A stretch of 64,000 bases of DNA from a phage, in sequence record PZ386971.1. One strand, given 5' to 3'. The first letter of the stretch is position 1. Each line of letters starts with the position of its first letter. The position numbers and the translations under genes were made by a program. Under the pieces are notes generated by a model that was not told where the DNA came from, made no database searches, and saw only the letters and a list, made by a program, of their open reading frames with translations. Positions 29,176 through 61,946 of this stretch are shown piece after piece.

Positions 29176-32175
29176 TCAACCTTTCTTCTTTTGCATCATG
29201 GCAAGAAGGTTCACACGGCGCTTGTGCGACCAGCCGACCACGTCAAGGATGGACTGAATCGGGTCAATGAAGGACTTCTCAAAGGCCGCCTGATAATCCA
29301 CCCATTTGCCCAGACCAAGCTCCTCAGGGAAGAACTCAGGATATGCGAAGTAATTCTGGCCGAATGGGTTGCCTGGCTTCAACAACACCATCTGTACCTT
29401 ATCACCCGACTCGATCATCGGTAGACCCAGATCTTCGTTCTTCTCAACCAGACGGTTGTAGCCCACACACGCCTTGGCAGCAAAATGAGCACCAGAGATG
29501 AACGATCCGTCAGCAGCCACACACTTCTCTATGTCGGACACGCCGGAAGCCTTGGCGATATCGTCTACAGAGAGTTTCATGTACTCCTCTTTGTACTGGG
29601 AGATGAGCGCCTGTACTTCCTCTTCAGTGCCGAGTAGGATCTTCTCATAGCACTTGACAAGACGCTCACGACACCATTCCGGCGTGGTGGACTTGCGGGC
29701 TTCCAGACCTTTGAACTTGATCTTCGGCTTCTCGTACTTGATACCCTCACTGTCGTACACGGCCATGGCATACATCTTCTTGGCTCGCCAGACAGCGGCT
29801 GACGCAATGACCTCACGCTCCCATACCATGCGCTGTTCAAATCCGTTCATGGTGTTACACAGAAGCTGTGCCCACTCATTGGTCTTCGGCTGGTAGTTGT
29901 CTTTGATCCATTGGTCGATATTATCAACCATAGCATGATGGTCAGTAACATCAGGCCACAACTGCTTGACAAGACGCTCAATGCAGATGTAGTTGGAGTC
30001 GGTATCACCTGCGATGACGAAGTCCTGGCCTGTTGTACCACACAGCTTGTTCAGATAGTCATCAGTGTAACGCTTGTTCCACTTGTTGATCAGCTGACCG
30101 GATGTGGTGATGGCTTCGGCAATGTTGAGGTTGAAGTACTCTTTGAACCAGACGTTCGAGATAGCGCCATAACCTGCGTTCATCAAGATCTTCAGACCTT
30201 GCTGTAGGGTGTCTTGAGCAACGCCCAGATCTTCCCACTTCTTCATCACTTCGGTCAGTGCATCAAGATCAATGTTCTTGTGCTCTTCATACCACTCTGG
30301 GTCATAGTAGCGAGACTTCATGGCAGACTCAAGATGGAAGTCGCCCTTCGACATCTCTTTACACCAGCCAGCCCACTGCTCATACTTCAGACCCTTGGCC
30401 TTCTCTACTTTACGGTCGCTGTAGATACCACGCATGATTTCAGACAGGAACGACATCTTCTCGTTGCTGAAGAATTGAACGTTCGGCGTGAACGACACGT
30501 TGTAGCGGCGCAGGGTTTCAAAGTGGAACTCACCCAGGGCAACCAACTCATCAACAACCTGCAGGCGTTCGTCAACCGCACGCAACAGCTTGTCGTGAAG
30601 GGCTTTCATCAACCGACGTTTGTGCATCGGCGTTGCCATGTTATTCATCTGAGCAGCCAGCTCTTCACACATAGCCTCAATAATCTCGCGGCGCTGGTGT
30701 TTGTCGCCAACGATAGTCTCTGGACCGAGGTTGTACTGCTGAATGATGTGAGGATACAGGGAATTCAAATCTTCCGAGAAGACCCAGAAGTAGATTCCTG
30801 GTGTCACATCCATGACGTATGCACCCTCAAAGTCGGTCGGACCATCGTATACACGCTGGATCTTAGGCACTATCCCCTTCTCGTACAGGCGATAGTAGCA
30901 CATGGCCAGCCACGGAGCCACAGTGCCCAGACCGTCTTCATAGTTGGACTTGGTGCGGTAGGCCAGGACGAACATCAGCTGGAGCAGGCGCAGCTTCTGT
31001 TCAAGTCGCCATACCAGCTTAACGTCTTTGATACCATATCGGGTGTGTTTGCAGTAGTCGTTGAAGTACAGATCAAAGAGCGACTTGCTCTCACTGTAGT
31101 CCATCTTCTTCTCACCCAGCTCACAATACGCAATCCAGTCAAGAGAGTAGCGTTCACGGGTGGTGTACGTGTGTTTCTTGTAGATCTGCATATAATCGAG
31201 CATAGGACAGCCCACGAACTGATACGTCGTGATATCGCCCTTCTTATCGCGAATGATACGCTTCTTAATGATACCCCAAGGACTGAGGCGCGACGTTTCA
31301 GCCTCACCCAGAACCTGATTCATGCGCTCAACAAGATACGGGCTATCGAACGTTTCAATGTTCCAGCCTGTCCAGCCGTCGAACTGACGCTCCGACCAGA
31401 AGTCAAGGAAAGATCGCAGCAGATCTTGTTCGGTGGTGAACTCCTGATAAACAACCTCAAGGCCGCCGATCTCTTTGTCTTCGGTGTCGTATGCGAATTT
31501 GTTACGATCTTTGGCACAGGGCACACCCCAGACCATGAACTTATTGGTCGCCATATCCTGAAGCTGGATCAGGGTAATGGGGAACGCCGCATTCATGTCT
31601 TGGGTGATCTTGCCGTTGCTGTCAATGATAGGGAACTGATCAGTGACGTTGTTGCTGATGAAAGAACCAGGGAAGTGCTCACGGACAAAGTCATGGTTGG
31701 CCAGCACTTGTTTATGGAAGCGGCGAATGCGCGCCTCATTCCCTTTGAACGTCTGCTGCTCAATAGTTGGGTGAGGGAATGGACCTTTGGTCATCTTTCC
31801 GTCTTTCCACCCGGCGGAGAATACTTCGATATCGAGGTTAGCAATATGGATGTTGGAGTAATCCGGCTCAATCTTTCCAGGAAAGCTATGGGCGATGAAC
31901 TGGTATGCATAATCGGTCTGCCCATAAATGGCAGCACCCTGGACTTCCTTGTACTCTTCAAGATAGTTGTCAGCGTCACGCATGGAAGGGAACTGCTTGG
32001 CTACCAGGGGTTCATTGAGAAGGCCGACCTTTTCAACATTTGAATAGTCAGCCGTGGGTAAATAGAGAGTGGGTTCGAATTTCTTTTTCAACAGACGGCG
32101 ATTACCCATGTCATCTGCAATTCGAATCAACAGGTCATTGCCCCTGCGGGCAACGTTCGTATAGAAAACGGTCAT
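29176..32175 (-). CDS. DNA polymerase, family B (T4 gp43-like)
   Basis: 999-aa ORF with exonuclease NLDIEV motif and polymerase motif C (IAGDTDS). Confidence 0.9.
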   Translation of the reverse strand: MTVFYTNVARRGNDLLIRIADDMGNRRLLKKKFEPTLYLPTADYSNVEKVGLLNEPLVAKQFPSMRDADNYLEEYKEVQGAAIYGQTDYAYQFIAHSFPGKIEPDYSNIHIANLDIEVFSAGWKDGKMTKGPFPHPTIEQQTFKGNEARIRRFHKQVLANHDFVREHFPGSFISNNVTDQFPIIDSNGKITQDMNAAFPITLIQLQDMATNKFMVWGVPCAKDRNKFAYDTEDKEIGGLEVVYQEFTTEQDLLRSFLDFWSERQFDGWTGWNIETFDSPYLVERMNQVLGEAETSRLSPWGIIKKRIIRDKKGDITTYQFVGCPMLDYMQIYKKHTYTTRERYSLDWIAYCELGEKKMDYSESKSLFDLYFNDYCKHTRYGIKDVKLVWRLEQKLRLLQLMFVLAYRTKSNYEDGLGTVAPWLAMCYYRLYEKGIVPKIQRVYDGPTDFEGAYVMDVTPGIYFWVFSEDLNSLYPHIIQQYNLGPETIVGDKHQRREIIEAMCEELAAQMNNMATPMHKRRLMKALHDKLLRAVDERLQVVDELVALGEFHFETLRRYNVSFTPNVQFFSNEKMSFLSEIMRGIYSDRKVEKAKGLKYEQWAGWCKEMSKGDFHLESAMKSRYYDPEWYEEHKNIDLDALTEVMKKWEDLGVAQDTLQQGLKILMNAGYGAISNVWFKEYFNLNIAEAITTSGQLINKWNKRYTDDYLNKLCGTTGQDFVIAGDTDSNYICIERLVKQLWPDVTDHHAMVDNIDQWIKDNYQPKTNEWAQLLCNTMNGFEQRMVWEREVIASAAVWRAKKMYAMAVYDSEGIKYEKPKIKFKGLEARKSTTPEWCRERLVKCYEKILLGTEEEVQALISQYKEEYMKLSVDDIAKASGVSDIEKCVAADGSFISGAHFAAKACVGYNRLVEKNEDLGLPMIESGDKVQMVLLKPGNPFGQNYFAYPEFFPEELGLGKWVDYQAAFEKSFIDPIQSILDVVGWSHKRRVNLLAMMQKKKG

Positions 32176-32254
32176 GTAATTCTCCAGGTTATCCGTGCCG
32201 TTAGCACGTGGGCATATTTAACCATAGAGCCATTCATTGACCAAGGAGTTTATT

Positions 32255-33778: not shown

Positions 33779-34232
33779 CTTCCCAGAAGTCTTCGTCGTC
33801 CCCGACAGCAGCCAGTTCCGTGTCCAGTTCTTCATCGGTAAACGGTGGCAGCACCCCGTTCTGAATCAGATAATCCATCTCATCATCTTCCAGCTGCAGG
33901 TCGGTGGCAATATACAGCGCTCCGCTGCCCTCTTCGTCCGTCTCGATACTGTACGAAGTGTATGGCACCCCATTCACTGTAATGATGATAGACGTTGGAT
34001 CCTTGGGATCTACGTGCGCCTCGAACGGCACACCATCAATCGGTGCATCTTCTAGGAAGGTAGCAAGTGCTACGGCGGCGCGGACAACATCAGTGCCTTC
34101 AACGCCCGCATAGATCTCTTCCGCGCCTGTCTCTTCACGATCAAACAGCTCAATCGTGATACCGTCTTGAACACCAGTCCATACAGGGATGTCATTGGTG
34201 TATTCTGATTCAAACAATTTGGAGGTTGGCAT
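33774..34232 (-). CDS. hypothetical highly acidic protein
   Basis: 152-aa ORF rich in D/E. Confidence 0.45.
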   Translation of the reverse strand: MPTSKLFESEYTNDIPVWTGVQDGITIELFDREETGAEEIYAGVEGTDVVRAAVALATFLEDAPIDGVPFEAHVDPKDPTSIIITVNGVPYTSYSIETDEEGSGALYIATDLQLEDDEMDYLIQNGVLPPFTDEELDTELAAVGDDEDFWEE

Positions 34233-34376
34233 GTTGGGTTCCTCAGTGGGTTAGCCATATGGGGTATTTAGGCTTCCCGCTTGGCGAGGTCTGGTTTGTA
34301 CAGGACGCCTCTCGGAAATATTGGAGGAAGGTTTTCATAGATACCCCACACGGATTGTATGGGGTATTCAGGAGGG

Positions 34377-36655: not shown

Positions 36656-36744
36656 TGGCGGAAGGTGAAGGATTCGAACCTTCGGGGGCTAAAAGCCCCA
36701 CTCGATTAGCAGTCGAGTCCCTTAAACCTCTCGGGCAACCTTCC
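36656..36744 (-). tRNA. tRNA-Ser (anticodon GCU), class II with long variable arm
   Basis: Hand-folded cloverleaf: acceptor GGAAGGT/ACCTTCC, anticodon loop CTGCTAA, T-arm GAAGG-TTCGAAT-CCTTC, encoded CCA. Confidence 0.75.
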
Positions 36745-36964
36745 AATTTGGACGGGCTTCACACCCGATTGAGCATTTGATCTGCTGTAGCCCAACTCCC
36801 CGCGCTTCTCAGCGCCGATTGGTTAACTGGCGACCAGTGCCTTCTGGTTCGATCTCCTGGAACTTTACAGGCTTTGCGCCCGACCATTTCTGGAAGTTGG
36901 GGCATCGTTTCCGATGTGGAGTCACCCCATTTTATACACAGCTGGCTGCAACGCTTACTGTGTT

Positions 36965-37048
36965 TGGTGTGAGTGGATGGATTCGAACCACCGCGCTGTT
37001 ACGGGGAGATTTACAGTCTCCTGCATTCGACCGCTCTGCCACACTCAC
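36965..37048 (-). tRNA. tRNA-Tyr (anticodon GUA), class II
   Basis: Acceptor GTGAGTG/CACTCAC, anticodon loop CTGTAAA, T-loop GGTTCGAATCC, long variable arm, CCA encoded. Confidence 0.7.
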
Positions 37049-37305
37049 ATTTGGTCTGCCGCTGCGTGCTGGGCCACGCTCGAGGACATCGGCCATCCTT
37101 CCTCAGCTAATCCACGCAGCGGTAGATTTGTATCAGAGTGTCCGGTGTAGCAACCCGTGAGGTGCGCACTACTGTAGCCTCTACACTCTGAATTTGGTGG
37201 GCGTTACTATCGTCGTCTTCGGATTCCGTTCGGCTATTGGACAGAGGCTTGGAGCTTGTCGGTCGCGTACTTTATGCCTATTCACTTTCGTTCACACCCA
37301 TTGTC

Positions 37306-37381
37306 TGGCGACGATGGCAGGACTTGAACCTGCGACATACGGTTTAACAGACCGCCGTTCTACCGACTGAACTACATCGTC
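37306..37381 (-). tRNA. tRNA-Asn (anticodon GUU)
   Basis: 76 nt; acceptor GACGATG/CATCGTC, anticodon loop CTGTTAA, T-arm GCAGG-TTCAAGT-CCTGC, CCA encoded. Confidence 0.75.
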
Positions 37382-37552
37382 TTGCAAATCACTATACCAT
37401 ATAAAGTTTATTGAACAAACATTTATTTTACAACAAACTGTATTGGCGGGGTCTGAGGCTTTTCACCTCACCTGCTGGGTTTGGCCGCCCAGCCGTTCTC
37501 TATGAGGATTCACTGTCCGGACAGCTATCCATTAAACTATCGCCCCTCAATA

Positions 37553-37629
37553 TGGTGATCCTGATTGGGTTTGAACCAATGACCAATGAATTATGAGTTC
37601 ACTGCTCTAACCGACTGAGCTACAGGACC
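37553..37629 (-). tRNA. tRNA with CAU anticodon (elongator Met or Ile-lysidine type)
   Basis: 77 nt; acceptor GGTCCTG/CAGGATC with G1-C72 pair, anticodon loop CTCATAA, T-arm ATTGG-TTCAAAC-CCAAT, CCA encoded. Confidence 0.7.
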
Positions 37630-40543: not shown

Positions 40544-40552
40544 CTAAATATC
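40544..40552 (+). promoter_or_regulatory. candidate late promoter (CTAAATAtc)
   Basis: Motif about 40 nt upstream of the gp6-like start. Confidence 0.35.
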
Positions 40553-40590
40553 TTCAACACCATATTCAAACTCAGGTGATGGAGATTATC

Positions 40591-42369
40591 ATGGCCACGC
40601 AAACAGTCCCTTCACTCGATGTCAGGGCTTTCGAGTATCTTATCAAGAAGCGCATGAAAGCTGATCCAACTTTCAAGGATTATGACTTTGAAGGTTCTGG
40701 TCTCAGTGCAATCGTGCGTATCTTGGCCTCGGATGCCAACTCTATCGGGTTCATGCAGAACATGCTGAATGGCGAAAGCCATCTTCACTCTGCTCAACAG
40801 CGTTCTAATGTCGGTCTTGCGGCCGGGTTCTTGTCGTACACCCCTCACAACTACCAGGCGGCGTACCTGTACGCAAACGTCACAGTCACTCCATATGACG
40901 CCAGCACGGCTCCGGACACGATTATAATGGATCGCCGCGCGATGTTCATTGGGGCGAAGGATGGCAAATCCTACAACTTCACGGTTGACCAACCTGTGAG
41001 TGCCTCTCTTGTAGACGGCTCTTACAAGTTCGAGAACATCAAACTCGTACAGGGCAACTGGCTATACAAGTCCTATGACGTGGAAGGCAGCGCGATCTCT
41101 ACCTATGTGATCCCATCTTCTTCCGTGGACATCGACCATATGGTGGTGCAGGTGCAGGAATCTGAGACATCTGACGTGCGGTCTACCTTCTCACGATATG
41201 TCAGCCCGTTCGATTTGAGCCAGTATGCGCAACTCTACTTCGTTGAGCTGGGGTTGGACGGGATGTATACGTTCGAATTCGGTGATGGGTATATCTGTAA
41301 GCGAGTAGAAGACGGGAACGTCGTGTACCTCCAGTATCTGGAGACAGCTGGTGCGGACGGCAATGACATCACTGCCTTGTCCTCCGCGTCTTCCATCGGG
41401 GGATTCAACCTTGTAGATGTTGAGCTGGTGTCAGAACGTTCTTCCGGTGGTGCGGACCCGGAGAGCATTGAGGACATCAAGCGCCTTGCTCCGCTGGCTT
41501 ATCAGGCTGAGGGTGCGGCGGTAGCTGAAGTCGATTATGCTGTGTTGACCGAGCGTCTGTTCTCCAACGTCTCCCGCGCCAAAGCATATGGCGGAGACAC
41601 GCTCTCTCCGCCCGACTCCGGATACGTTTACATTGCTGTGGTGCCTTCTGTTGGTGAGACGCTCTCGGACGCCGAGAAGGCAGATATCGTGGCGAAGTTG
41701 GACAAGTACAATGTGGGCACGATCACACCCAAGATTGTCGACGCTGAACTGACTTATGTTGATGTCACCACCCGCGTGTTCTGGGATCCGACTTCCACGA
41801 CTTACACCGAAGAGCAGTTGAAGACAGTCGTGAAGAACGGTGTTGTCAACTGGGGCTTGGGGAACCTAGAAGGATTCGACGAACTGTTCGATAAAGAGCA
41901 GTTGCAGTCGGCCATCACCGACATGGACAGATCGATAGTGTCAAACATCACTTCTGTGAAGTATAAGCGCCATTTCAAGCCAGACTATGGGGTACTGGAC
42001 AGCTTCACATTCGATTATGGGCGCTCGATTGCGTCTGGTTCTGTGCGTATCAGTGGGTTTAAGCCGCTTCCGGCCGAGGTCGAATTCACTTACTACATAC
42101 GCGACGTCAGTGGTGTCCTGAATATGTACAAGGTGAGTACAACAGACACGACCAAGGAATATCTGGTACAAGCTGTTGGAATGGTTGATTATGTGACTGG
42201 CGTTGTTGAACTCCAGCGTATCATAGTATCCAACTACAACACTGAGGGTGTGACAATAATTGTGTCTCCAGACGGTCTTGACCAGAACATACAGGCCACA
42301 CAGAATCAGGTGCTCCGCATCGGTGCTGTAACTGTGGAGCCGGAGGTGCGTTATGTCCAAAGATCTTAA
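40591..42369 (+). CDS. baseplate wedge protein (T4 gp6-like)
   Basis: Start at ATG 40591 behind GGAGA; N-terminal DYDFEGSGLSAIVRIL matches a conserved gp6 N-terminal motif as recalled. Confidence 0.55.
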   Translation: MATQTVPSLDVRAFEYLIKKRMKADPTFKDYDFEGSGLSAIVRILASDANSIGFMQNMLNGESHLHSAQQRSNVGLAAGFLSYTPHNYQAAYLYANVTVTPYDASTAPDTIIMDRRAMFIGAKDGKSYNFTVDQPVSASLVDGSYKFENIKLVQGNWLYKSYDVEGSAISTYVIPSSSVDIDHMVVQVQESETSDVRSTFSRYVSPFDLSQYAQLYFVELGLDGMYTFEFGDGYICKRVEDGNVVYLQYLETAGADGNDITALSSASSIGGFNLVDVELVSERSSGGADPESIEDIKRLAPLAYQAEGAAVAEVDYAVLTERLFSNVSRAKAYGGDTLSPPDSGYVYIAVVPSVGETLSDAEKADIVAKLDKYNVGTITPKIVDAELTYVDVTTRVFWDPTSTTYTEEQLKTVVKNGVVNWGLGNLEGFDELFDKEQLQSAITDMDRSIVSNITSVKYKRHFKPDYGVLDSFTFDYGRSIASGSVRISGFKPLPAEVEFTYYIRDVSGVLNMYKVSTTDTTKEYLVQAVGMVDYVTGVVELQRIIVSNYNTEGVTIIVSPDGLDQNIQATQNQVLRIGAVTVEPEVRYVQRS

Positions 42370-43209: not shown

Positions 43210-44400
43210 ATGGCCGATTTTCTGAGTCGATACACAGGTCAGCAGATTGATGCAATCCTTTCTTCTGTTGACGATAAAATAAGCAAGACTGATGTTGTCA
43301 ACGATTTCGCTGTTGATGATCCGTTGTTCCCTCCTTCAGCTCATTTGACATACGAGCTGAAGCGTTCTGTGGATAAAATCTACGACACACTGGAAAACAA
43401 AGTGATCCGCACCGACGGTGGTGAACAAACGATCAACGGGAACAAGACCTTTGCTGCGTTATTGACAGCCAACGGCGGCCTGACTGTTCCGGCTGGGAAG
43501 AAACTGTCTATCGCGGATGAGCCTATAGTAGCGACAGATGGTGTTAACCTGAGCATGTTGAGAAAGCATGGTGTCAGTGAAGACACTACCCCGCCTGGTT
43601 CTGGTTTGGCTGGGGAGTTGTTGACATCCGGATATTACAAATTCAATTTGGATTTCACCAGATTGTCTGCGTATACCGGATCAACGTTGCCGACTTCAAT
43701 TCCAGTACAAACAGATTCTGGAGCGCGTTATTGGACAATGACTGCATTTTTTGATGCGTTGTTCGCAGACAACCGATTTAATGGATATGTGACAACGACA
43801 GCGTATGACGCAGATATGCTGAGTCTAGAGTCCCAGATTAATAACATCAACACATCGTTGAACGGGAAAGTCAACACATCGACTTACAACACTAAGATGG
43901 CGTCGTTGGATTTGAGTATCTCCAATATCAATACGTCTCTGGGTAATAAAGTCGAGGTCAGCACGTACAACACGAAGATGACATCTCTGGATAACAGCAT
44001 CAGTTCTCTTTCCAGTGATAAAGTTAATGTATCAACGTATAATGCCAAGATGACCTCTGTCGACAATAGTTTAGGGAACGCCGTTTATCGTACCAAAACG
44101 AATTTGTCTTCTTACACGGTTTCGGCTTCTGGGACGACGGCTCTTCCAGATTTTGATTTGGTGAACCTTTGTCAAATACTGGTGACCGCGCAATGGGGAA
44201 CAGGTAACGTTGTTGATACATATCGAGTAACCATAACTCGCGACGGAACTATCAAATCGGAGTTGTTGGTTCAGAAAAGTACGAGCGGTACAGTGACGTT
44301 CACAGGGGCTGTGGTGGGTGGTAAATTGAGAATTTCCGTTGTTAATGCGAATACAACAACTGCTTGTTCGGTCGATTATTCTATTGTAGCTTCTTTCTAA
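43210..44400 (+). CDS. tail fiber protein with internal tandem repeats
   Basis: N-terminal fiber-like segment (VIRTDGGEQTINGNKTF); three tandem ~21-aa repeats (NINTSLxxKVxxSTYNTKMxSLD). Confidence 0.6.
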   Translation: MADFLSRYTGQQIDAILSSVDDKISKTDVVNDFAVDDPLFPPSAHLTYELKRSVDKIYDTLENKVIRTDGGEQTINGNKTFAALLTANGGLTVPAGKKLSIADEPIVATDGVNLSMLRKHGVSEDTTPPGSGLAGELLTSGYYKFNLDFTRLSAYTGSTLPTSIPVQTDSGARYWTMTAFFDALFADNRFNGYVTTTAYDADMLSLESQINNINTSLNGKVNTSTYNTKMASLDLSISNINTSLGNKVEVSTYNTKMTSLDNSISSLSSDKVNVSTYNAKMTSVDNSLGNAVYRTKTNLSSYTVSASGTTALPDFDLVNLCQILVTAQWGTGNVVDTYRVTITRDGTIKSELLVQKSTSGTVTFTGAVVGGKLRISVVNANTTTACSVDYSIVASF

Positions 44401-44408
44401 AGTGAAAA

Positions 44409-44417
44409 CTAAATACC
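44409..44417 (+). promoter_or_regulatory. candidate late promoter (CTAAATAcc) with downstream leader hairpin
   Basis: Motif followed by perfect inverted repeat tacccta...taggggta just upstream of ATG 44453. Confidence 0.4.
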
Positions 44418-44452
44418 CCTAGATGAAACGAACACATTTAGGGGTATTTGAA

Positions 44453-47400
44453 ATGGCTAATAAACCAACACAGCCTGTTTTCCCTCTCGGTCTGGTGGCT
44501 GAAGAGCAGTCTACTTTGGCTGGTGTCGTCAACAAGGGTACGATTGAGCATGGACCAGATGCTGTCCTGACTTTACCCGAGGGTAATGCCAGCGCAGGAC
44601 TCCCGTCTTCCGTTCGCTACAATGCCGACTCCGACGAATTTGAGGGCTTCTATGAAAATGGTGGATGGTTGCCGCTGGGTGGCGGTGGTATCCGCTGGGA
44701 AGTCCTTCCGCATGCCTCTACGGTAATGCTCACTGAAGGGCGAGGCTATCTCATTAATAATACCACAGGGGCATCTACAGTGGTTCTCCCTTCCCCTACG
44801 CGTATTGGGGATTCCGTTACTATTTGTGATGCTTATGGGAAATTTGCCACTTACCCATTGACCGTGTCTCCTTCTGGAAATAATTTGTATGGCTCCACTG
44901 AAGACATGGCTATAACAACTGATAACGTATCAGCAACGTTCACTTGGTCTGGGCCTGAACAAGGTTGGATTATTACATCCGGCGTCGGTCTTGGCCAAGG
45001 CCGTGTCTACAGTCGTGAAATCTTTACAAAAATTTTGGCGTCTGAAACAAGTACTGTCACTCTCAATACTCCACCAACAATCGTGGACGTGTATGCTGAC
45101 GGAAAACGCCTTGCGGAATCCAAATATTCACTAGATGGGAATGTAATCACTTTCAGTCCTTCTTTGCCAGCCAGCACAGAACTTCAGGTGATTGAATATA
45201 CTCCTATTCAATTGGGTAATGGCGGTGGTTCTAGTTCTTCTACGATTACTTGGGTCTATAATGGGGGTTCAGCGATTGGCGGTGAAACCGAAATCACGTT
45301 GGACGTCGTTGTTGATGATGTTCCGGCCATTGATATAAACGGAAGTCGTCAGTATAAAAATCTGGGATTCACATTCGATCCATTAACCAGTAAAATCACT
45401 CTGGCGCAAGAACTGGAACCAGAAGATGAAGTTGTTGTAATTATCAATGGAACACCAAACATCTATAATCAAATTGATCATACTTTGCGGGAAGTGGCTC
45501 GTGTAACCAATGTTAAAGATACAGAGGTCGTTTATTTTAGTGTTGGTGCTGTGCTAAGCGGGTATAAAGTTATCTATGATAAAGTAACACAGAGATCATA
45601 TTTTATTCCAGAGCTACCGACTGGAACCACGGCAGTCAGCCTTAGTTCTTCGGCTGTACTTGTGCATTCTGCTGGTAGTGTTGATCTGGGCGCATTAGCC
45701 GTATCTCGTGAGGAGTATGTGACCTTACCTGGTTCATTCGATACAGGTGTAACTGTTAATACCAAGAATGAGTTGGTTGTGAGTAACGATATTAAATATC
45801 GTTGGGATGGTTCTGTACCCAAAGTAGTCCCTCCAGAATCTACCCCATTGGGTACAGGAGGTGTTGGTCCAGGGGCATGGCTTGTAGTTGGTGTTGTTGG
45901 ATTAGAGCAACGTTTAGCCTCCTGGAAAGGTTCTTCTCTTATTGATTCCGGTAGTCTGTCTCTTTACAAAAAGAGCGGTGTATTCGGTGATGGTGGGAAT
46001 GTATCCGATAAATATCAGGTTGTTCTACATTCAGATGGGTTCTGGTACAAGTACAATGGGACACTACCTGTTAGTTATGGTGCTGCCCCAGACTCTTCTT
46101 GGACTAACGTTGGTAAGCTAACAGGGTTTAATGAACACTCACCTGAGAATTTTGGTGCAATCCCCAATGACCCTAGTTTTGACTGTTTACCTGCTATAAA
46201 ACTAGCTATAGCCACAGGTACATTAAATCTGAATGGGAATTCTACCTACCACGTAACGGATGAGGTTGTTATACCTTCTTACTTACGTGGGAATCTAAAC
46301 GGGGCAACAATTAAAGCAATTGGCTCCGTATGGCCTACGTTAAAAGCTGTTGTACGCGTTAGTAAATTTCCTGTCGGTACAGCAACAGTGGATGTGGCTA
46401 ATACAGAGAATCAAGTGCGAGGATTACGCTTAATCGGTAGCTTAAACGTAGACTGTGCAGATATTGCATCATATGGTTTTTATGCACGTCTTCTGTGTGC
46501 AGAATCTGAGATGGGTAGCATCTATGCATATAATGCTAATAGATATGGCATTGTAATGTTTGCTTGCTGGTATTTTCAAATGGGCACTCTCCATGCAAAC
46601 AACTGTGCAAGGGGTATGGCATTAGGTTATTCAACAGAAGGTGAGCAAGGGGATACCTATGTGAATGCTACACACTTCCCTCACATTAGTGCATGGGGTA
46701 CTGATAAGTCTACGGGACTAGGTTATGACCCAATCACGGATGATGCGAGTAAATATACAATAGGTGCTGGTATTATCTTAGGTCGTGGTTTGTCTACCAG
46801 TGTTGGTGTGATTTGCTCTGAGAATACGGCAGGTGCTGGGGTAGTAACAATGGACCCTGCTGCGTGGGACATTGGGGTCATGTACTGTGAGGGTAATAGT
46901 AAAGACTTTACTCAAGAGGGTGAACCCAAGGTGTCATTGCTGTCATCCAAGGCCAACAGTGAAAGTCATACGCTTACCATCTCCACACTCCACCTTTCCG
47001 CAGGTTGTGGCATTTTAACCAGAAGCAATCAAGAGCGTGTGCTAATCAGAAGTCTATATCGCTTTGATAACGCAAAAACCTTCCACTCTTACTGCACAGC
47101 AGACACAGTAGAGGTTGGTAGCAGCAACTACTATGTACTTAACGGGCATAATTACAATGCACCTGCTGCACTTATTAAGGAACCGCTCAATGTAGACTTT
47201 GTGCGTTCAGGGTTGACTTTAAGTGAGTGGACATCTACAGTTATCGGTCATTTTGCTGGTAGTACAGCAGAACAACAGCTTTATGTTAAGCTCCCAGCAA
47301 GTCCCAGCGGCCTAGATTTACAGATAGATAGTGAGGATGGGACGGAATATATCACTGTAACTGGTACAGATTTTAAAGTCTCTCTAACTAAGAAAAGATT

Positions 47401-47506
47401 GCCTAGTAAACTGTATGAGATAAGGATTGGTGGGGTGTCTACAGTAGCTGTTACCGATTGTTCTATTCTAGTCAGAAGTAAAAAAGGTGATTGGTATTAC
47501 TGGTAG
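44453..47506 (+). CDS. tailspike protein A (N-terminal anchor region, shared ~130-aa module, beta-helix-like C-terminal part)
   Basis: Start set at MANKPTQ downstream of promoter and leader hairpin; shared module at about aa 375-510. Confidence 0.65.
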   Translation: MANKPTQPVFPLGLVAEEQSTLAGVVNKGTIEHGPDAVLTLPEGNASAGLPSSVRYNADSDEFEGFYENGGWLPLGGGGIRWEVLPHASTVMLTEGRGYLINNTTGASTVVLPSPTRIGDSVTICDAYGKFATYPLTVSPSGNNLYGSTEDMAITTDNVSATFTWSGPEQGWIITSGVGLGQGRVYSREIFTKILASETSTVTLNTPPTIVDVYADGKRLAESKYSLDGNVITFSPSLPASTELQVIEYTPIQLGNGGGSSSSTITWVYNGGSAIGGETEITLDVVVDDVPAIDINGSRQYKNLGFTFDPLTSKITLAQELEPEDEVVVIINGTPNIYNQIDHTLREVARVTNVKDTEVVYFSVGAVLSGYKVIYDKVTQRSYFIPELPTGTTAVSLSSSAVLVHSAGSVDLGALAVSREEYVTLPGSFDTGVTVNTKNELVVSNDIKYRWDGSVPKVVPPESTPLGTGGVGPGAWLVVGVVGLEQRLASWKGSSLIDSGSLSLYKKSGVFGDGGNVSDKYQVVLHSDGFWYKYNGTLPVSYGAAPDSSWTNVGKLTGFNEHSPENFGAIPNDPSFDCLPAIKLAIATGTLNLNGNSTYHVTDEVVIPSYLRGNLNGATIKAIGSVWPTLKAVVRVSKFPVGTATVDVANTENQVRGLRLIGSLNVDCADIASYGFYARLLCAESEMGSIYAYNANRYGIVMFACWYFQMGTLHANNCARGMALGYSTEGEQGDTYVNATHFPHISAWGTDKSTGLGYDPITDDASKYTIGAGIILGRGLSTSVGVICSENTAGAGVVTMDPAAWDIGVMYCEGNSKDFTQEGEPKVSLLSSKANSESHTLTISTLHLSAGCGILTRSNQERVLIRSLYRFDNAKTFHSYCTADTVEVGSSNYYVLNGHNYNAPAALIKEPLNVDFVRSGLTLSEWTSTVIGHFAGSTAEQQLYVKLPASPSGLDLQIDSEDGTEYITVTGTDFKVSLTKKRLPSKLYEIRIGGVSTVAVTDCSILVRSKKGDWYYW

Positions 47507-47513
47507 TATAATA

Positions 47514-47542
47514 AAAAGCCCCCAATTTTGGGGGCTTTTATT
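47514..47542 (+). terminator. intrinsic terminator after tailspike A
   Basis: gccccc-aatttt-gggggc hairpin then TTTTATT. Confidence 0.6.
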
Positions 47543-47570
47543 ATATAGAGTTTACTGTTTTCATTACCCT
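47536..47570. repeat. conserved ~35-bp element downstream of tailspike terminators (copy 1)
   Basis: ttttatatagagtttactgttttcattaccct; near-identical copy at 55206-55240. Confidence 0.5.
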
Positions 47571-47762
47571 GATTGATAATGCTGTTGGCTCTCTCGGGTT
47601 GTCATCAAACGGGTATAAGAACTTTATAGGTGATATCAATGATGGGTCAGCGTATTTTTATTTCGCCAACATAGATGGATCAAGAATATCGGGGTCGTCT
47701 GTTTATGATGGGTGGGGTGATGTTGGTATACATTTTGAAATGTGTCTGGAATAGGAGTGTCA

Positions 47763-47857
47763 AACCCCGCTTTGGCGGGGTTCTTATTATACCTTTGTTC
47801 ATAAATTTGATTAGTTCAGACTAAATACTCCATATTGGTCATCCTTTATGGGGTATT
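47763..47857. repeat. repeated cassette-boundary module (hairpin + late promoter + leader hairpin), copy 1
   Basis: About 95 bp, roughly 85% identical by eye to 50741-50832, immediately upstream of tailspike B. Confidence 0.6.
47821..47829 (+). promoter_or_regulatory. candidate late promoter (CTAAATAct)
   Basis: Within repeated module, 32 nt upstream of ATG 47861. Confidence 0.4.
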
Positions 47858-47860
47858 ATC

Positions 47861-50290
47861 ATGATTTCTCAATTCAATCAACCACGCGGCTCCACTTCCA
47901 TAGAAGTTAACAAACAATCTATCGCTCGAAATTTCGGTGTCAAAGAAGACGAAGTCGTTTATTTCACTGCTGGTATTGATCTCAGTGGATTTAAAGTAAT
48001 TTATAATGAGTCTACCCAACGGGCTTATTCTCTTCCTTCAGGTATTGTTTCAGGAACGACTGCGATAAGTCTGGATAAAAGAGCTATCCTCACTCATTCA
48101 GCGGGTTCTGTTGATCTTGGGGAATTAGCAGTAAGCCGCGAAGAATACGTAACCTTACCTGGTTCATTTGATACTGGTGTAACTGTTAATACTAAGAATG
48201 AATTAGTTGTCTTTACCGATGGTAAGTATCGCTGGGATGGGGCACTGCCTAAAGAAGTGCCTGCTGGTTCAACCCCTACATCAACCGGTGGTGTTGGAAC
48301 AGGTGCATGGGTTAGTGTTGGTGATGCGAGTTTGAGGTCAATAGCTCAATACAGAGCCAATACCATTGAAGATTTAAAATCATTGCCATTTGCGGTTGGA
48401 GATATTGTTAATGTCGCTGGGTATTATGATGTTTTTGATGGGGCACAGCATTACCGAGTGATTAGTGGTACAGATGATGGAACAGGGGTTCAGCTCAATA
48501 ATGGTTTGTGGGCAAATATTATCATTAATGGCGATGCTTGTGTAGATTGGTTTGGCGCTAAAGGTGATGGTGTTGCAGATGACTGGTGGGCAATCAATAA
48601 AGCTATTAACGCCTCGCTCTCTACCGATTATCAGGGTGGTTGGTGGGAGACGTCAAGTAGAAACCCTAAATTTAAAGTTAGACTTAGTAGACGCTCTTAC
48701 AGAATCACTAAACAGATTTTACTACCCCCTTACATAGAGTTTTATGGTATGGGTTCGCGCTGGTATTTTTCGGGTGATAATAATTCTCGCTTAATCCCTG
48801 ATTTTGATAATCCGTTGCAATTCGCTGTGAAATCTGCTAGCTATATTGTTGAAACCGGTGAACTAGCACCTGAGGGGTGGTATTCTGGGGTGGTTTGGGT
48901 TGACCCAAAAAAACTAACGACTTGTCATGGTATTAAAACTTATGGATATAGCATCGAACCAACAAAACAAATTTTAGGCGGTATAAGACTGATAGCGAGT
49001 CCAATTTCTCATGTATACGATATATTCATAACAAATGTTGATTTTGGAGTTTTACTGAATTGTTCATGGGTGAGTAAGGTTGACGTTAAAACTCATCATA
49101 ATAAATGCGGGGTTATGTCTAGTCATGATGGTAATAACACTCACGTGGATGGTTATTTTACAGGGACAGAAATCAAACCGCTTGATGGTAATCCTTACCT
49201 CAACCCAATAGAGTCTTTAGACTCTACAACAGGGCTCCAAGACCAATCTATATCTGACCCAGACAGTAAAATAGGTGTGATTTTTTATTGGTCACAGGGG
49301 TCAACAAGTACGAATATGACGTGTGAGGGTAACACTATTTCGTTGGCTGTGGCTAAGGGTGGTGCTGATGTAAGGTGTTTATACTCAGAACGTAATTCAG
49401 ATTGTACATTTACTGGGTACAGTTCACTAGTTACAATTGGTGAAATAACTGGCATTGGTGACGGTGGAACTTTTGAGCTTGGTGTAAATAATACTATTTC
49501 GTTAGACAAAGACACTCAGTATGGTGTCGCTAAACGATTTAAGTACGTGAGCGAGTGGGGTAATAAGCTGTTTATGCCCTCTAGCTGGAAAGAATACACC
49601 AAAGGTTGTTTAGTTGAAGGGTTTGATTATAGCGAAATTTTTGTAGATGCGATAAATGGAGATGACACCAATGTTGGCTCCAGTCTTCACCCTGTGAAAA
49701 CTTTGGAGAGAGCTCTAACGCTTGTGAATTCAGTGTATACTACATCTGACTTGCTAAGCTCAGTGCCGAGGGATAGAGTAATAAAGTTAGTAGGCTCAGC
49801 AACATACTACCCAGACGGACAGCATAGGTTCGTGGGCGGCTCGTTAAAAATTACAAAAGCTGATAACTCACGACCGACTGTTAATTTATCAAAACCAATC
49901 CGATTTAACGACACATCCCTAGTATTTGAGGAAGTAAATTTAGTGCGACCAACAGATGACCACGGGAATAATGAGAATGGCGCAATTTTCCTTGAGGATG
50001 GGTGTAATGAAGTCAGATTGAAAAACTGCGATCTAAGTCTACAAAAATTCAGCTTCTTATATCCTACTTGGGGCTTTGCTGGAATATGTACCTTGGTGTT
50101 AAACGGGGTTAGTGTTACTGGTGATTCAACAACAAGAATGATACAAACAGCTGATGGATATCATGATTTGCACTTGTTTAATGTAATTAGCTACGAGACA
50201 ACTTACACTGGAGGAATAGAGTCAAGACCAGATAAAGGCTATGATATACCAGCAGATAGACGTGGTCATATATTGGGTGTATCAATATAA
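47861..50290 (+). CDS. tailspike protein B (shared N-terminal module + pectate-lyase-like beta-helix)
   Basis: Shared module at aa 20-150; WFGAKGDGVADDWWAINKAI resembles the beta-helix depolymerase entry motif. Confidence 0.65.
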   Translation: MISQFNQPRGSTSIEVNKQSIARNFGVKEDEVVYFTAGIDLSGFKVIYNESTQRAYSLPSGIVSGTTAISLDKRAILTHSAGSVDLGELAVSREEYVTLPGSFDTGVTVNTKNELVVFTDGKYRWDGALPKEVPAGSTPTSTGGVGTGAWVSVGDASLRSIAQYRANTIEDLKSLPFAVGDIVNVAGYYDVFDGAQHYRVISGTDDGTGVQLNNGLWANIIINGDACVDWFGAKGDGVADDWWAINKAINASLSTDYQGGWWETSSRNPKFKVRLSRRSYRITKQILLPPYIEFYGMGSRWYFSGDNNSRLIPDFDNPLQFAVKSASYIVETGELAPEGWYSGVVWVDPKKLTTCHGIKTYGYSIEPTKQILGGIRLIASPISHVYDIFITNVDFGVLLNCSWVSKVDVKTHHNKCGVMSSHDGNNTHVDGYFTGTEIKPLDGNPYLNPIESLDSTTGLQDQSISDPDSKIGVIFYWSQGSTSTNMTCEGNTISLAVAKGGADVRCLYSERNSDCTFTGYSSLVTIGEITGIGDGGTFELGVNNTISLDKDTQYGVAKRFKYVSEWGNKLFMPSSWKEYTKGCLVEGFDYSEIFVDAINGDDTNVGSSLHPVKTLERALTLVNSVYTTSDLLSSVPRDRVIKLVGSATYYPDGQHRFVGGSLKITKADNSRPTVNLSKPIRFNDTSLVFEEVNLVRPTDDHGNNENGAIFLEDGCNEVRLKNCDLSLQKFSFLYPTWGFAGICTLVLNGVSVTGDSTTRMIQTADGYHDLHLFNVISYETTYTGGIESRPDKGYDIPADRRGHILGVSI

Positions 50291-50740
50291 ATAATTGATA
50301 TTATGCTTCATGGTGATTGTGGGTGATTCACCCACGATTACTTTTAGGTACTACAGTTGATAATTCAGATTGATACATTGGATTGGCAGGTGCGTGTAAT
50401 ACTGCACTTGAATTTTGATACATAAATCCGGCACCCTCCCTCACCCTCAACGCGCCCAATTGCCCCCATAGGAGGCTCATTACCTCCTTGTGGGCTTTGT
50501 TGTTTTTGTGGCTGCTGTTGCTGACTACATTCTATGTATGGATGTATCTCATCATACTAAGCATTATCTAAGAGCCATCCTATGATACGACCCCATTGGG
50601 ATTCCTAACTTCACAACTACGGTAATATTATGAATTAATCAGGTGAACTGCTCCTAGTCAGACTGGAGGAACGATTGAAGACTCTGTTTGATAATCAGGC
50701 AAGGGATAGATAGGATCGTGGTTTTGGAGAGTAAAATCAA

Positions 50741-50832
50741 AACCCCTCTTCGGCGGGTTCTTGTTATACCTTTGTTCATAAATTTATTAGTTCAGACTAA
50801 ATACCCCATATTGGCAAATCCTCTATGGGGTA
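50741..50832. repeat. repeated cassette-boundary module, copy 2
   Basis: Near-duplicate of 47763-47857 immediately upstream of tailspike C. Confidence 0.6.
50797..50805 (+). promoter_or_regulatory. candidate late promoter (CTAAATAcc)
   Basis: Followed by leader hairpin taccccata...tatggggta and ATG 50841. Confidence 0.4.
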
Positions 50833-50840
50833 TCTTCAAA

Positions 50841-53177
50841 ATGACCAGAAACGTCGAGAGCATCTTTGGAGCGGTCGTAACAGCTCCGCACCAGATTCCA
50901 TACACTTACACAGCAACGGGTGGAGAGAAGTTTATCTCCCTCCCTTTCTACCCTGTCACTGGTATAGTCACAATCAACGGTGGCATGCAAGTTCCGTTAG
51001 ACAACTTTGAAATCGATGGAAATACGTTGAATCTCGGACGCGCATTATCCAAAGGTGACGTTGTGTTCTGTCTGTTTGATAAGATTCTGTCTCCAGAAGA
51101 TTATAAAACCGGGGTTCGAATCTATAAGTTTCAGGCTATAGGAGGTGAAACCGAGTTCACTCCTGATTACACATATTATGGAGTCCAATCTCTTTATATC
51201 GGTGGTGAGTACAAAACACCCGAAATTGAATATTCCTATGACAGCACGACAGGGAAAGTGTCTTTACAAACTGCGCTGACTGCAGGCGTTTGGGTAGTCG
51301 CTGAAATGTCTGTTAAACAACCGAATATCAGTCCGTTGTTTGACCGAAGTATTCAAGAAATCGCCCGTTCAACTAATGTAAAAGATTCTGAAGTAATCCT
51401 TAGTACGGATACTTCTCAGGTACTTAATGGTAAGAAAATTATTTACTCTGTTAATGAGCAGAAGTCTTATGGTTTACCGGTATTACCTACTAACGTTTAT
51501 ATTCAGTCTGTTGTTAACGGGAAGCTCACATACAATCCTGGTTCTGTGGTTGTAGATTTACTCTCTGTACCAAGTGAAGCACTTGAAGCAGTTAATTTAA
51601 TTAAAACCAATTTACTTAGTGAATCGGGTGCATCTTTGGTTGGGTATACAAAACCCTATACTGGTGCAGTTAAACGTCTTGCTTCTGATTACTTTAATCA
51701 GGAGATTAACGTTGATGACTTTGGTGCATACGGTGATGCATATCTTCTTAACGGCACTGTAAACCCAAATCGCCATGATGACTCTGCTGCATTCCAGAAG
51801 GCATTGATTGCTGCTTATCGAATTGGTGGTGCTAAGGTTGTAGCTACTCCTTGGAAGAGTTATTACATTGCCAACAAGGTATATGTACTAGCTTCCGAGT
51901 CCGGTTCCGATATTGAAGCACCAGTTTTCCCTAAACGTCGTATCCAGTTAATTGATTTACAGGGTGCTACCATTGTTGGACAGGATGATACATCTAACAC
52001 CAGTAATGTGTTTATGGAGACAGGCTATATTACTAGTACTGGTTCTGTAGCTTCCGTATTTGGTAAAGGTGAGGAAGAGTATTTAACCATTGGTACATGT
52101 GTGCGAAATGCTACGCTGGTAAATTTCTACCAAGGCTTCCGTTTCCGTGACCATGTTTTTGGTTGTGAACTTACCGATATTGTAGGACAAGATGTGCAGC
52201 AGCTTCTTTATACTCGTCGCTGTTTCTACTCGCTGTACCGTAACTTACAATGCAATGGTAGTTTTACTACTGGCTTGCATCGTTATGACATTGGGGATGA
52301 AGTGAATATTCAGCCTCTGATTTCGGTCCATACTGGCGAGTGTGACGTAGGTATTAAGTTCACTGGGGCAGTTGAAGCACTGACTCTCTTTAACTGTGGT
52401 ATTGAAAGTTTCCGCACACATGGAGTATGGATTGCTGGTGCTTACAATATTAAGTTCGATTCTTGTTACTTTGAATCGAATCACCCTAATGTGTACGGTT
52501 GTATCGCTACCAGTGCTAATAACATTACATTGGATAATAACTGGATTTATGGTTCATCTTTTAAGATGTTCGGTGGGTTTGATGACAACACTAATGTCAG
52601 AATGCACCCTAATAACCGTATAGGGGGTGGAGCAGTTTGGTGGGATCTTAATGAAGGCTCCCCTTATAACTTATCTGACTTACACTTCCCTACTGACATA
52701 AAAGCTGGTGGTAATACCTTACCCGTAGTTAGTGCCAAGGAAGCTAGTACTGTAAACCAGACTATTACTTTCTATGACCCTAATTTAGGTTTGTCCTCAA
52801 TAGTTGGTAAAGCAGAGCAAACTAACCGTTTCCACCCACAACGAGTAAATGGTCAGATGAGCATCGGTAGTACTGCATCTTATACAGTTGGTGCATCTAC
52901 AACCACTGAAGTAGTTGGAAATGATACCCGAGTTAAGTGGACTACCCAAATAAGATATTCTGATACACAGTTACTGTATGTAGCACTTAAGGTAGATAAC
53001 AACTTAGGAACCTGGTTCTGGTTAGGCCATGTTGTAGGTGATACAGCTAAAGCCTTACTTACCAGTGATGAAAACAAACCCCCTGTAGTTACTAATGAAA
53101 ATGGTTATGTAACTATAACCAGTCCACTACTTGCTACCCCTATTGCAATTCATGGTGGTGAGATTCGTATACTGTAA
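50841..53177 (+). CDS. tailspike protein C (divergent copy of shared module + beta-helix-like domain)
   Basis: Start set at ATG 50841 downstream of promoter (track ORF began at 50688); DDFGAYGDAY...SAAFQKALIAA motif. Confidence 0.6.
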   Translation: MTRNVESIFGAVVTAPHQIPYTYTATGGEKFISLPFYPVTGIVTINGGMQVPLDNFEIDGNTLNLGRALSKGDVVFCLFDKILSPEDYKTGVRIYKFQAIGGETEFTPDYTYYGVQSLYIGGEYKTPEIEYSYDSTTGKVSLQTALTAGVWVVAEMSVKQPNISPLFDRSIQEIARSTNVKDSEVILSTDTSQVLNGKKIIYSVNEQKSYGLPVLPTNVYIQSVVNGKLTYNPGSVVVDLLSVPSEALEAVNLIKTNLLSESGASLVGYTKPYTGAVKRLASDYFNQEINVDDFGAYGDAYLLNGTVNPNRHDDSAAFQKALIAAYRIGGAKVVATPWKSYYIANKVYVLASESGSDIEAPVFPKRRIQLIDLQGATIVGQDDTSNTSNVFMETGYITSTGSVASVFGKGEEEYLTIGTCVRNATLVNFYQGFRFRDHVFGCELTDIVGQDVQQLLYTRRCFYSLYRNLQCNGSFTTGLHRYDIGDEVNIQPLISVHTGECDVGIKFTGAVEALTLFNCGIESFRTHGVWIAGAYNIKFDSCYFESNHPNVYGCIATSANNITLDNNWIYGSSFKMFGGFDDNTNVRMHPNNRIGGGAVWWDLNEGSPYNLSDLHFPTDIKAGGNTLPVVSAKEASTVNQTITFYDPNLGLSSIVGKAEQTNRFHPQRVNGQMSIGSTASYTVGASTTTEVVGNDTRVKWTTQIRYSDTQLLYVALKVDNNLGTWFWLGHVVGDTAKALLTSDENKPPVVTNENGYVTITSPLLATPIAIHGGEIRIL

Positions 53178-53228
53178 TTACACAGCCCCCTTAACTGGGG
53201 GCTACCATAGAAAAACAATGAGGTTTAT

Positions 53229-55145: not shown

Positions 55146-55160
55146 GTAATAATCACTTAA

Positions 55161-55195
55161 AAACAACCCCACTTCTATGGGGTTGTTTTTACTTA
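55161..55195 (+). terminator. intrinsic terminator after tailspike D
   Basis: aaacaacccc...ggggttgttt 10-bp stem then TTTTTAC. Confidence 0.6.
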
Positions 55196-55205
55196 TTAAT
55201 AATAC

Positions 55206-55240
55206 TTTTTATATAGAGTTTACTGTTTGCATTACCCTAA
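55206..55240. repeat. conserved ~35-bp element downstream of tailspike terminators (copy 2)
   Basis: tttatatagagtttactgtttgcattaccct, matching 47536-47570. Confidence 0.5.
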
Positions 55241-55404
55241 TCGATACAGCAGTTAAGGTAATAGTCTGACCTGATATATTAAACATACCTAATTGAATAC
55301 CATCTACCATGAATGGCAGAGGTCTCGAATCCATGACCATAACCACAGAAAGATAATCAAAGCCCCTTCGGGCTTATTTCTTTCTATTCCTCGGTTGGTT
55401 GTAT

Positions 55405-55413
55405 ACTAAATAT
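55405..55413 (+). promoter_or_regulatory. candidate late promoter (CTAAATAtc)
   Basis: About 34 nt upstream of ATG 55447. Confidence 0.35.
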
Positions 55414-55446
55414 CTCTATAATGGCACCTATCGATGGAGCATCAAA

Positions 55447-61925: not shown

Positions 61926-61946
61926 TTCAAAATTGAGGGTATCGAT

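Follow-up and report, generated by a model that had tools for sequence, protein, structure and literature searches.

A late promoter located within the 5′ arm of a hairpin that sequesters the ribosome binding site (RBS) has been described for the T4 genes e, soc, I-TevI, I-TevII, I-TevIII, and segB and for mobE of phage Aeh1 (PMC3014915; PMC2988022). In the case of T4 gene e, long early transcripts fold over the RBS, and lysozyme synthesis is reduced about 100-fold, while transcripts from late promoters in the 5′ strand are translated well (PMC3014915; PMC2988022). The T4 late promoter TATAAATA occupies positions −13 to −6, and the Aeh1 late consensus is CTAAATA at −12 to −6 (PMC1524935). A passage of the Ackermannviridae literature quotes a longer form, CTAAATAcCcc, among the “two unique regulatory motifs” of these phages (PMC7283392).

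The window, that is, the whole 64,000-nt stretch of phage DNA analyzed here (sequence record PZ386971.1), falls by megablast among Ackermannviridae phages and is Agtrevirus/Kuttervirus-like, with 95 to 97% identity to Escherichia phage LHE287 and Enterobacter phage fGh-Ecl02 and ~90% identity to Shigella phage Ag3. It has the CTAAATA consensus of Aeh1 and, as published for CTAAATAcCcc in Ackermannviridae, carries that motif in front of the same gene classes. Like the late promoters of T4 and Aeh1, these elements are short, A/T rich, and confined to a −10 region with no −35, they precede late genes, and they belong to phages with gp55, gp33, and gp45. They differ from the T4 late promoter in having C for A at −12, as in Aeh1, and in a frequent pyrimidine-rich extension from −5 to −1. 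Pyrimidine-rich promoter extensions and purine-rich Shine-Dalgarno (SD) sequences are partly complementary by nature.

The leaders described below resemble the T4 e-type gate in that the late −10 element and the 5′ strand of a hairpin share bases, the 3′ strand of that hairpin being the SD; in that gate long transcripts are folded and silent and late transcripts lack the 5′ strand, and the same is predicted here. The differences are that the genes concerned encode virion proteins (tailspikes, baseplate wedge, and neck) and lie among late genes, sometimes just past terminators, whereas in T4 the late gene sits inside early/middle operons, and that the SD is an unusual GGGGU and the stem takes in nearly the whole −10 element. 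We estimate a probability of about two in three that CTAAATA is a gp55-type late promoter and that the hairpin hides the SD in read-through RNA while leaving the gene's own late transcripts free. Such a gate, which would extend the classic T4 case, is apparently undescribed in the literature searched for the tailspike, baseplate, neck, and endolysin genes of Ackermannviridae.

Placement of CTAAATA and its reading as a late promoter

CTAAATA occurs nine times in the window, on both strands, as follows.

Plus strand: CTAAATA at 40544, 44409, 47821, 50797, 55406, 61917, and 61957
Minus strand: CTAAATA at 2158-2164 and 34265-34271

Eight of the nine copies lie 30 to 47 nt 5′ of an SD-bearing ATG on the correct strand (binomial P = 1.3e-11, with ~3.3% of strand positions falling 15 to 60 nt before a start of the 92 called genes). 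The bare TAAATA is likewise concentrated, 12 of its 29 copies being placed 15 to 60 nt before starts (P = 5e-11), and CTAAATAY has 8 matches in the window versus 2.3 expected, a count reached in none of 100 shuffles. The genes preceded by CTAAATA include those for gp6, tailspikes, VriC, gp14, and a gp48-like protein. The ninth copy, at 61957, falls inside the gp14 neck gene (codons 4 to 6), probably by chance. An earlier note on this DNA, made from the sequence alone, had placed CTAAATA(c/t) upstream of structural-gene starts, and these counts bear it out; the motif is not equally common inside coding regions. In that note, 55405 and 2157 are each off by one (55406 and 2158-2164), and the copies at 34271(−) and 61957 were overlooked.

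That CTAAATA is a T4-type late-promoter −10 element, as the same note had proposed, is well supported by its likeness to the T4 type, its location before late genes, the pattern of conservation, and the late transcription proteins of Ag3. In orthologous leaders of ~20 genomes, the conserved stretch extends from precisely the C of CTAAATA to the ATG, while the flank upstream of the motif is unrelated and can differ entirely between orthologous leaders. CTAAATA is common to all sites, and no −35 or other conserved upstream element was found in these orthologous leaders. An onset of conservation at the motif C next to an unrelated flank is what a promoter consisting of a −10 element alone should show. 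The genes for the late sigma factor gp55 (phrog_234, 7e-52), the coactivator gp33 (PF16805, 1e-18), and the clamp gp45 (phrog_223, 2e-64) lie outside the 64-kb window and were located in Ag3; the identity of Ag3 gp55 came from PHROGs, and its comparison with Pfam and PDB sequences gave no match.

By extrapolation from the T4/Aeh1 rule (PMC1524935), +1 was placed 12 nt after the motif C, which puts the predicted late transcript starts at 44421, 47833, 50809, and 61929; no mapped transcript 5′ ends or transcriptomes for Ackermannviridae were found in the literature searched. The sequence CATAAATT, found 22 nt before 47821 and 50797, was considered as a second late promoter that would put the hairpin on the mRNA, and was rejected because it is absent from the orthologous leaders of other genomes.

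The promoter half of the earlier proposal is already known in the literature. Adriaenssens et al. (2012) reportedly gave the original description of the ‘Viunalikevirus’ motif CTAAATAcCcc; in the genome papers of Ag3 and CBA120 the late consensus was not yet settled. We found no mention of a paired GGGGTAT/SD arm or of a hairpin in those parts of the Ackermannviridae motif literature that were covered.

Leader stems between the predicted promoter and the ribosome binding site

The sites and their predicted folds are given below; gene identities were taken from the annotation of relatives.

2121 to 2176, no single strand: face-to-face divergent late promoters between gp48-like and gp4-like genes
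2158 to 2164, minus strand: CTAAATA on the side of the gp48-like baseplate gene (ATG 2123)
2135 to 2141, plus strand: TTAAATA on the side of the gp4-like head completion gene (ATG 2174)
34230 to 34271, minus strand: CTAAATAccccatat, predicted late promoter (34265-34271) before a 152-aa ORF (ATG 34232)
40544 to 40593, plus strand: predicted promoter (40544-40550) and 7-bp stem ATCTTCA (40550-40556)/TGGAGAT (40580-40586) burying the SD of the gp6 baseplate wedge gene (ATG 40591); −17.1 kcal/mol, z −2.9
44409 to 44415, plus strand: CTAAATA, predicted gp55-type −10 element (−12 to −6) of the first tailspike gene (ATG 44453); predicted +1 at 44421
44410 to 44425, plus strand: 5′ arm TAAATACCCCTAGATG of a 16-bp stem, overlapping the promoter and the predicted start site
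44435 to 44450, plus strand: 3′ arm CATTTAGGGGTATTTG of the same stem, containing the SD AGGGGT (44440-44445); −21.5 kcal/mol, z −7.6
47763 to 47782, plus strand: intrinsic-terminator-like hairpin, 39 nt upstream of the promoter at 47821
47821 to 47863, plus strand: predicted promoter (47821-47827) and 11-bp stem AATACTCCATA (47824-47834)/TATGGGGTATT (47847-47857) before the second tailspike gene (ATG 47861); −17.9 kcal/mol, z −4.3
50739 to 50760: terminator-like hairpin, 39 nt upstream of the promoter at 50797
50797 to 50843, plus strand: predicted promoter (50797-50803) and 10-bp stem ATACCCCATA (50801-50810)/TATGGGGTAT (50824-50833) before the third tailspike gene (ATG 50841); −17.7 kcal/mol, z −3.3
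55406 to 55449, plus strand: predicted promoter (55406-55412) and weak 6-bp stem CTCTAT (55414-55419)/ATGGAG (55434-55439) before a VriC-like structural gene of 1612 aa (ATG 55447); −7.3 kcal/mol, z 0.1, alone not significant
61917 to 61949, plus strand: predicted promoter (61917-61923) and 8- to 9-bp stem ATACCTTCA (61921-61929)/TGAGGGTAT (61934-61942) before the neck protein gp14 gene (ATG 61947); −11.4 kcal/mol, z −3.5

In every stem the RBS forms the 3′ arm (AGGGGU, GGGGU, GAGGGU, or GGAG, placed 7 to 8 nt ahead of the ATG and in most cases continued by AU[U]), and the 5′ arm has its first base within TAAATA, at index 1 to 8 from the C, and its last base 12 to 16 nt after the C. Given the T4/Aeh1 start-site rule, the 5′ arm corresponds to promoter positions −11 to about +2. 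Among 13 different leaders, the partners of the SD zone lie at index 2 to 16 from the C, the predicted +1 being at index 12. Since the 5′ arm is the promoter itself, RNA begun at the predicted +1 should lack it. Folding the leaders of five sites as read-through RNA buried the SD and gave −11.4 to −21.5 kcal/mol (z −2.9 to −7.6); truncated at the predicted +1, these leaders gave −0.9 to −5.9 kcal/mol, with z of at least 0. SD pairing probabilities were 0.77 to 1.00 at 44409, 47821, and 50797. Late leaders without a stem also exist: folding of the 34271(−) leader gave no SD-pairing hairpin (z −0.2), and the gp19, gp21, and gp22 leaders of relatives have none.

The inverted repeat that the earlier note had seen after the motif in four cases is real at 44409, 47821, 50797, and 61917 and weaker at 40544 and 55406. 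The function proposed for it, a stem-loop at the mRNA 5′ end serving stability or shared control, is not supported, given a 5′ arm that begins within the −10 element and a 3′ arm that coincides with the SD. A motif acting as the promoter leaves no room for the stem at the start of the mRNA it produces: no base can serve as −10 element and as transcript 5′ end at once, so that the two claims, taken together, were mutually exclusive, a contradiction that the present analysis corrects. None of the leader stems begins downstream of the predicted start with its SD unpaired. In place of the stability hairpin, the most likely reading on this analysis is an SD-sequestering hairpin of the T4 e type in which the promoter is embedded.

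Several other assignments were discarded. An intrinsic-terminator reading of the leader stems was rejected because they are followed not by a U-run but by 3 to 7 mixed bases and then the ATG; a terminator scan found separate upstream terminators and none of the stems. The ATG at 44423, which is in frame and with which the ORF listing begins the first tailspike gene, was likewise rejected as not conserved in relatives, since the same frame meets a stop in Kuttervirus relatives and the conserved N terminus MANKPTQP begins at 44453. The repeat TAAATAG/CTATTTA at 2164(−) was not retained as a leader hairpin, because it consists of the opposing promoters themselves; face-to-face late promoters are also present at Ag3 gp54/gp2. 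In an Rfam scan of the window, no family fell on the leaders, and four tRNAs alone reached gathering scores.

We propose that CTAAATA would be read by the host RNA polymerase with phage gp55 as its sigma factor and with gp33 and the gp45 clamp as partners, and that late transcription would begin ~12 nt after the motif C. The hairpin would form solely in RNA begun further upstream, as read-through or polycistronic RNA, and would hide the RBS there, while RNA from the gene's own late promoter would have no 5′ arm and a free RBS. Tailspike, baseplate-wedge, and neck proteins would thus be translated efficiently only from their own late transcripts, and the endolysin of relatives would follow the same translation rule; start-site position, late timing, and translational effect are all predictions of this proposal. 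Long transcripts are plausible at 44409 and at the endolysin and orf174 genes of Ag3, while 47821, 50797, and 61917 follow terminator-like hairpins. Because of the terminators before 47821 and 50797, little read-through RNA to silence may exist there, with the stem perhaps serving as a backup. At 44409, the sole recognizable upstream promoter is the late promoter at 40544, with no terminator between, so that the hairpin would act within late polycistronic RNA; the stop codon of the upstream gene (44398-44400), 10 nt before the stem, might allow translational coupling.

Covariation of the two arms and competing explanations

A strong SD-occluding fold was found at 13 of 28 starts with the motif ([CT]TAAATA 18 to 55 nt upstream) and at 6 of 286 starts without it, among the 314 called gene starts of the window and the complete Ag3 genome (Fisher P = 2e-11, somewhat inflated because the window and Ag3 share orthologous duplicates). 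Direction and size of the effect are clear from Ag3-only examples as well. Over all 314 starts, the mean SD pairing probability was 0.74 with the motif and 0.50 without. Covariation was judged by a derangement test and an inner-stem test, because loop lengths are so unequal between gene families that an alignment would simply have followed the assumed structure. The duplex of the cognate 5′ arm and SD averaged −6.4 kcal/mol over 20 gene families versus −4.2 ± 0.44 kcal/mol for mismatched partners, and none of 7405 derangements reached the cognate value. The SD changes together with the tract that follows TAAATA, in the combinations CCCCTA/TAGGGG, CTCCATA/TATGGGG (with a G-U pair), CCTTC/GAGGG, TCTTCA/TGGAGA, CTCTAT/ATGGAG, ACCAGTTG/CAACTGGT, and CCTTCGCA/TGCGGAGG. 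Pairing would explain the odd GGGGUAU ribosome site of these late genes.

That the complementarity is a by-product, the C-rich cCcc extension happening to match any G-rich SD, is barely credible in view of the derangement and inner-stem tests and of SDs that change with their tracts (TCTTCA/TGGAGA, CCTTC/GAGGG, and ACCAGTTG/CAACTGGT among them), even though noncognate pairs still average −4.2 kcal/mol and the 15-mer CTAAATACCCCATAT recurs at unrelated genes, some of which, 34271(−) and Ag3 uvsW, lack a strong stem. The stems also outgrow both motifs, outward by ATA/TAT and inward by unique pairs such as CTAGATG/CATTTAG, TTCGCA/TGCGGA, and TGTGT/ACACA. From the recurrence of CTAAATACCCCATAT at stemless leaders it follows that the cCcc tract may be a genuine preference of the promoter or initiation region to which the SD has adapted, and not the reverse.

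Of the explanations that accept the pairing in RNA, one makes the hairpin a translational-coupling or stoichiometry device in late polycistronic RNA, with no early/late switch: ribosomes ending the upstream gene would open the stem, or the stem would limit tailspike translation from long messages. The nearby stop codon at 44409, the lack of a terminator back to 40544, and the fact that all neighboring genes are late structural genes fit this idea. At 47821, 50797, and 61917, by contrast, the upstream gene is 300 to 550 nt away or on the opposite strand, and given this placement and the terminators between, coupling cannot apply there; moreover, the Ag3 endolysin and orf174 genes lie in long co-directional minus-strand runs, in which many genes are annotated with replication or nucleotide-metabolism functions, matching the logic of T4 gene e. 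We regard coupling as unlikely. 5′-terminal hairpins are known mRNA stabilizers in bacteria (e.g., the ompA leader), and the strength and conservation of the stems, together with their position in the leader, could suggest decay protection or shared post-transcriptional control of late mRNAs. Stabilizing stem-loops, however, occupy the very 5′ terminus and keep the SD accessible, whereas here the 5′ arm precedes the predicted start, beginning 1 to 8 nt after the motif C, within the −10 element. A sigma-type promoter is not transcribed from its own −10 element, no conserved upstream sequence could serve as another promoter, and, the 3′ arm being the SD, a stable 5′ hairpin would shut off translation of the mRNAs it was supposed to protect, which makes this reading very improbable.

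Two further proposals look to the DNA. The terminator-promoter-hairpin unit might mainly be a homology patch for recombination that swaps tailspikes, with the pairing secondary: the cassettes at 47760-47838 and 50737-50814 are near-identical repeats, the same leader precedes different tailspike genes across genera with differing upstream flanks, and the tailspike module is mosaic. Recombination needs no SD-complementary arm, though, and pairing is also found at single-copy genes with unrelated stems (gp14, gp6, endolysin, orf174, and Ag3 orf220) and in unrelated metagenomic phages. As the main role of the unit this is rather improbable, but the idea is compatible with the late-promoter gate and is no true alternative to it. 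Alternatively, the repeat might be the site of a dimeric regulator or include a second promoter on the opposite strand; the repeats at 2135/2164 and at Ag3 gp54/gp2 are indeed two opposed late promoters, and the 3′ arm at 44409, read as its reverse complement (CAAATACCCCTAAATG), is similar to the motif. We consider a DNA-level role highly improbable at the leader stems, where loop lengths range between 4 and 13 nt within the window and reach 20 nt elsewhere, unlike a fixed protein site, where G-U pairs (ACTCC/GGGGT at 47821) function in RNA only, and where the SD is in all cases the 3′ arm, at a constant spacing from the ATG; nor is there a minus-strand gene downstream of the tailspike leaders.

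The same design in relatives and in uncultured phages

The leader of the Ag3 endolysin gene, TTAAATAccttcgcattcattgcggaggtattttcttATG, combines TTAAATA with a 13-bp stem over GGAGG (−18.0 kcal/mol; SD pairing probability, 0.99). The gene sits in a long co-directional minus-strand run, and its leader is the direct counterpart of that of T4 gene e.

A scan of IMG/VR for CTAAATACCCC..GGGGTAT retrieved at least 85 unique sequences. An ATG follows 2 to 8 nt downstream in 52 of the 85 matches listed, with ~10% expected, and the remaining ones listed are mostly ordinary terminators with T-runs, which were set apart. The inner stems, which are outside the search pattern, differ between matches yet are complementary; among the matches listed, 15 of 27 distinct inner stems add at least 3 pairs, versus 4.4% of shuffles.

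It is possible, although we hold it to be doubtful, that a terminator, a CTAAATAcCcc promoter, and an SD-complementary arm make up a portable Ackermannviridae cassette, with cCcc partly shaped by pairing, and that the design is widespread in uncultured T4-like phages, including in front of GIY-YIG homing endonuclease genes. If so, the cassette would insulate each tailspike gene transcriptionally and translationally from what lies upstream, and tailspike genes would be swappable between phages without upsetting expression. Ackermannviridae phages are being engineered for host-range changes, reporter, or biocontrol uses. A tailspike transfer would do well to carry the leader from the C of CTAAATA through the ATG, and an upstream promoter that transcribes the full stem would probably give poor tailspike expression.

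Outside Ackermannviridae, the same design was found before a GIY-YIG endonuclease gene (SegE_GIY-YIG, 6e-38) and before genes for a NUMOD3-motif protein, a PD-(D/E)XK nuclease, and a family B DNA polymerase. Its presence before endonuclease genes agrees with the precedents from homing endonucleases.

The promoter-in-hairpin device in other phages and possibly at another promoter class

Among the matches listed from IMG/VR, leaders of the form CTAAATACCCC-stem-GGGGTAT-ATG are present on viral contigs outside the Ackermannviridae (L102, L122, L093, L095, L048, and L084; G+C, 35-50%). The device, a late promoter in the 5' arm of a hairpin whose 3' arm carries the Shine-Dalgarno sequence (SD), therefore seems to be common among those uncultured phages whose late promoters are of the CTAAATA type. 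The gene 3' of the leader encodes a GIY-YIG endonuclease in L102 and a NUMOD3-motif protein in L122, and others in this set of contigs have such a leader 5' of the gene for a family B DNA polymerase or for a PD-(D/E)XK nuclease.

The SD of the gene starting at 35570 (-) in the window is buried by an 11-bp stem (actCCTGTAGA...TCTACAGGagaa), with z-scores of -6.4 in the window and -7.5 in the ~90%-identical Shigella phage Ag3, where the counterpart lies at 140879 (+). Its leader lacks TAAATA and has a -10-like hexamer, TATACT, immediately 5' of the 5' arm of the stem. This gene may share the promoter-in-hairpin logic of the CTAAATA leaders, but with another class of promoter.

Late promoters face to face and a motif copy within a gene

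Two late promoters stand face to face in the 50-nt divergent intergenic region at 2121-2176, a layout also found at gp54/gp2 of Ag3, and the leaders of the two genes would be expected to overlap in antisense.

Late promoters at 2121-2176
2135 (+), TTAAATA, serves the gp4-like (head completion) gene
2164 (-), CTAAATA, serves the gp48-like (baseplate) gene

A further CTAAATAT occurs at 61957-61964 (+), 40 nt 3' of the true promoter of gp14, the neck protein gene, and falls in gp14 codons 4-6 (TSKYF). This copy is probably a coding coincidence, since the Kuttervirus gp14 orthologues keep the TSKYF peptide and encode it without the motif.

Tailspike region and mosaic ancestry

The tailspike genes are flanked by repeated intergenic cassettes of 84-91% identity, which are candidate homology patches for the exchange of tailspike modules.

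Repeats around the tailspike genes
47760-47838 and 50737-50814, repeat pair, in the order terminator, tacctttgttcataaattt, late promoter
47538-47586 and 55206-55254, second repeat, 49 nt, 3' of gene-end terminators

G+C content is 41-42% over the tailspike genes (46000-56000) versus ~50% elsewhere, and the ~450 nt between two of these genes at 50291-50740 hold no convincing open reading frame (ORF). Together, these features suggest receptor-binding modules that were acquired horizontally, the ORF-free stretch possibly being a gene remnant. The leader (53170-53231, +) of the fourth tailspike-like gene (ATG at 53229) lacks CTAAATA and contains a short hairpin (CAGCCCCCTTAACTGGGGGCTA) immediately 3' of the preceding gene. 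Some tailspike genes of relatives carry another conserved leader, "aacaacaggagattc," likewise without CTAAATA.

Judging from sequence identities, the ancestry of the window is mosaic. For the gene preceding the first tailspike (43210-44397), identity is 91-92% with one set of genomes, ~157-161 kb in size, but 65-68% with a second set; in the neck gene (61947-62594) the pattern is reversed (93-99% versus about 80%).

DNA polymerase leader and tRNA cluster

The leader of the DNA polymerase ORF, 29176..32175 (-), contains a small hairpin, CGUGCU-AAC-GGCACG, with UAAC in the loop region, ~20 nt 5' of the SD; the folding energy of the entire leader is -17.1 kcal/mol, with a z-score of -2.2. This hairpin is similar to the gp43 translational operator of T4/RB69, the loop of which is UAAC (PMC3014915), and the site at 32170-32240 (-) could be a conserved DNA polymerase autoregulation site. 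Four tRNA genes are clustered at 36659-37629 (-) (Rfam RF00005, 56-76 bits), matching the annotated Ser/Asn/Tyr/Ser tRNA cluster of Ag3.
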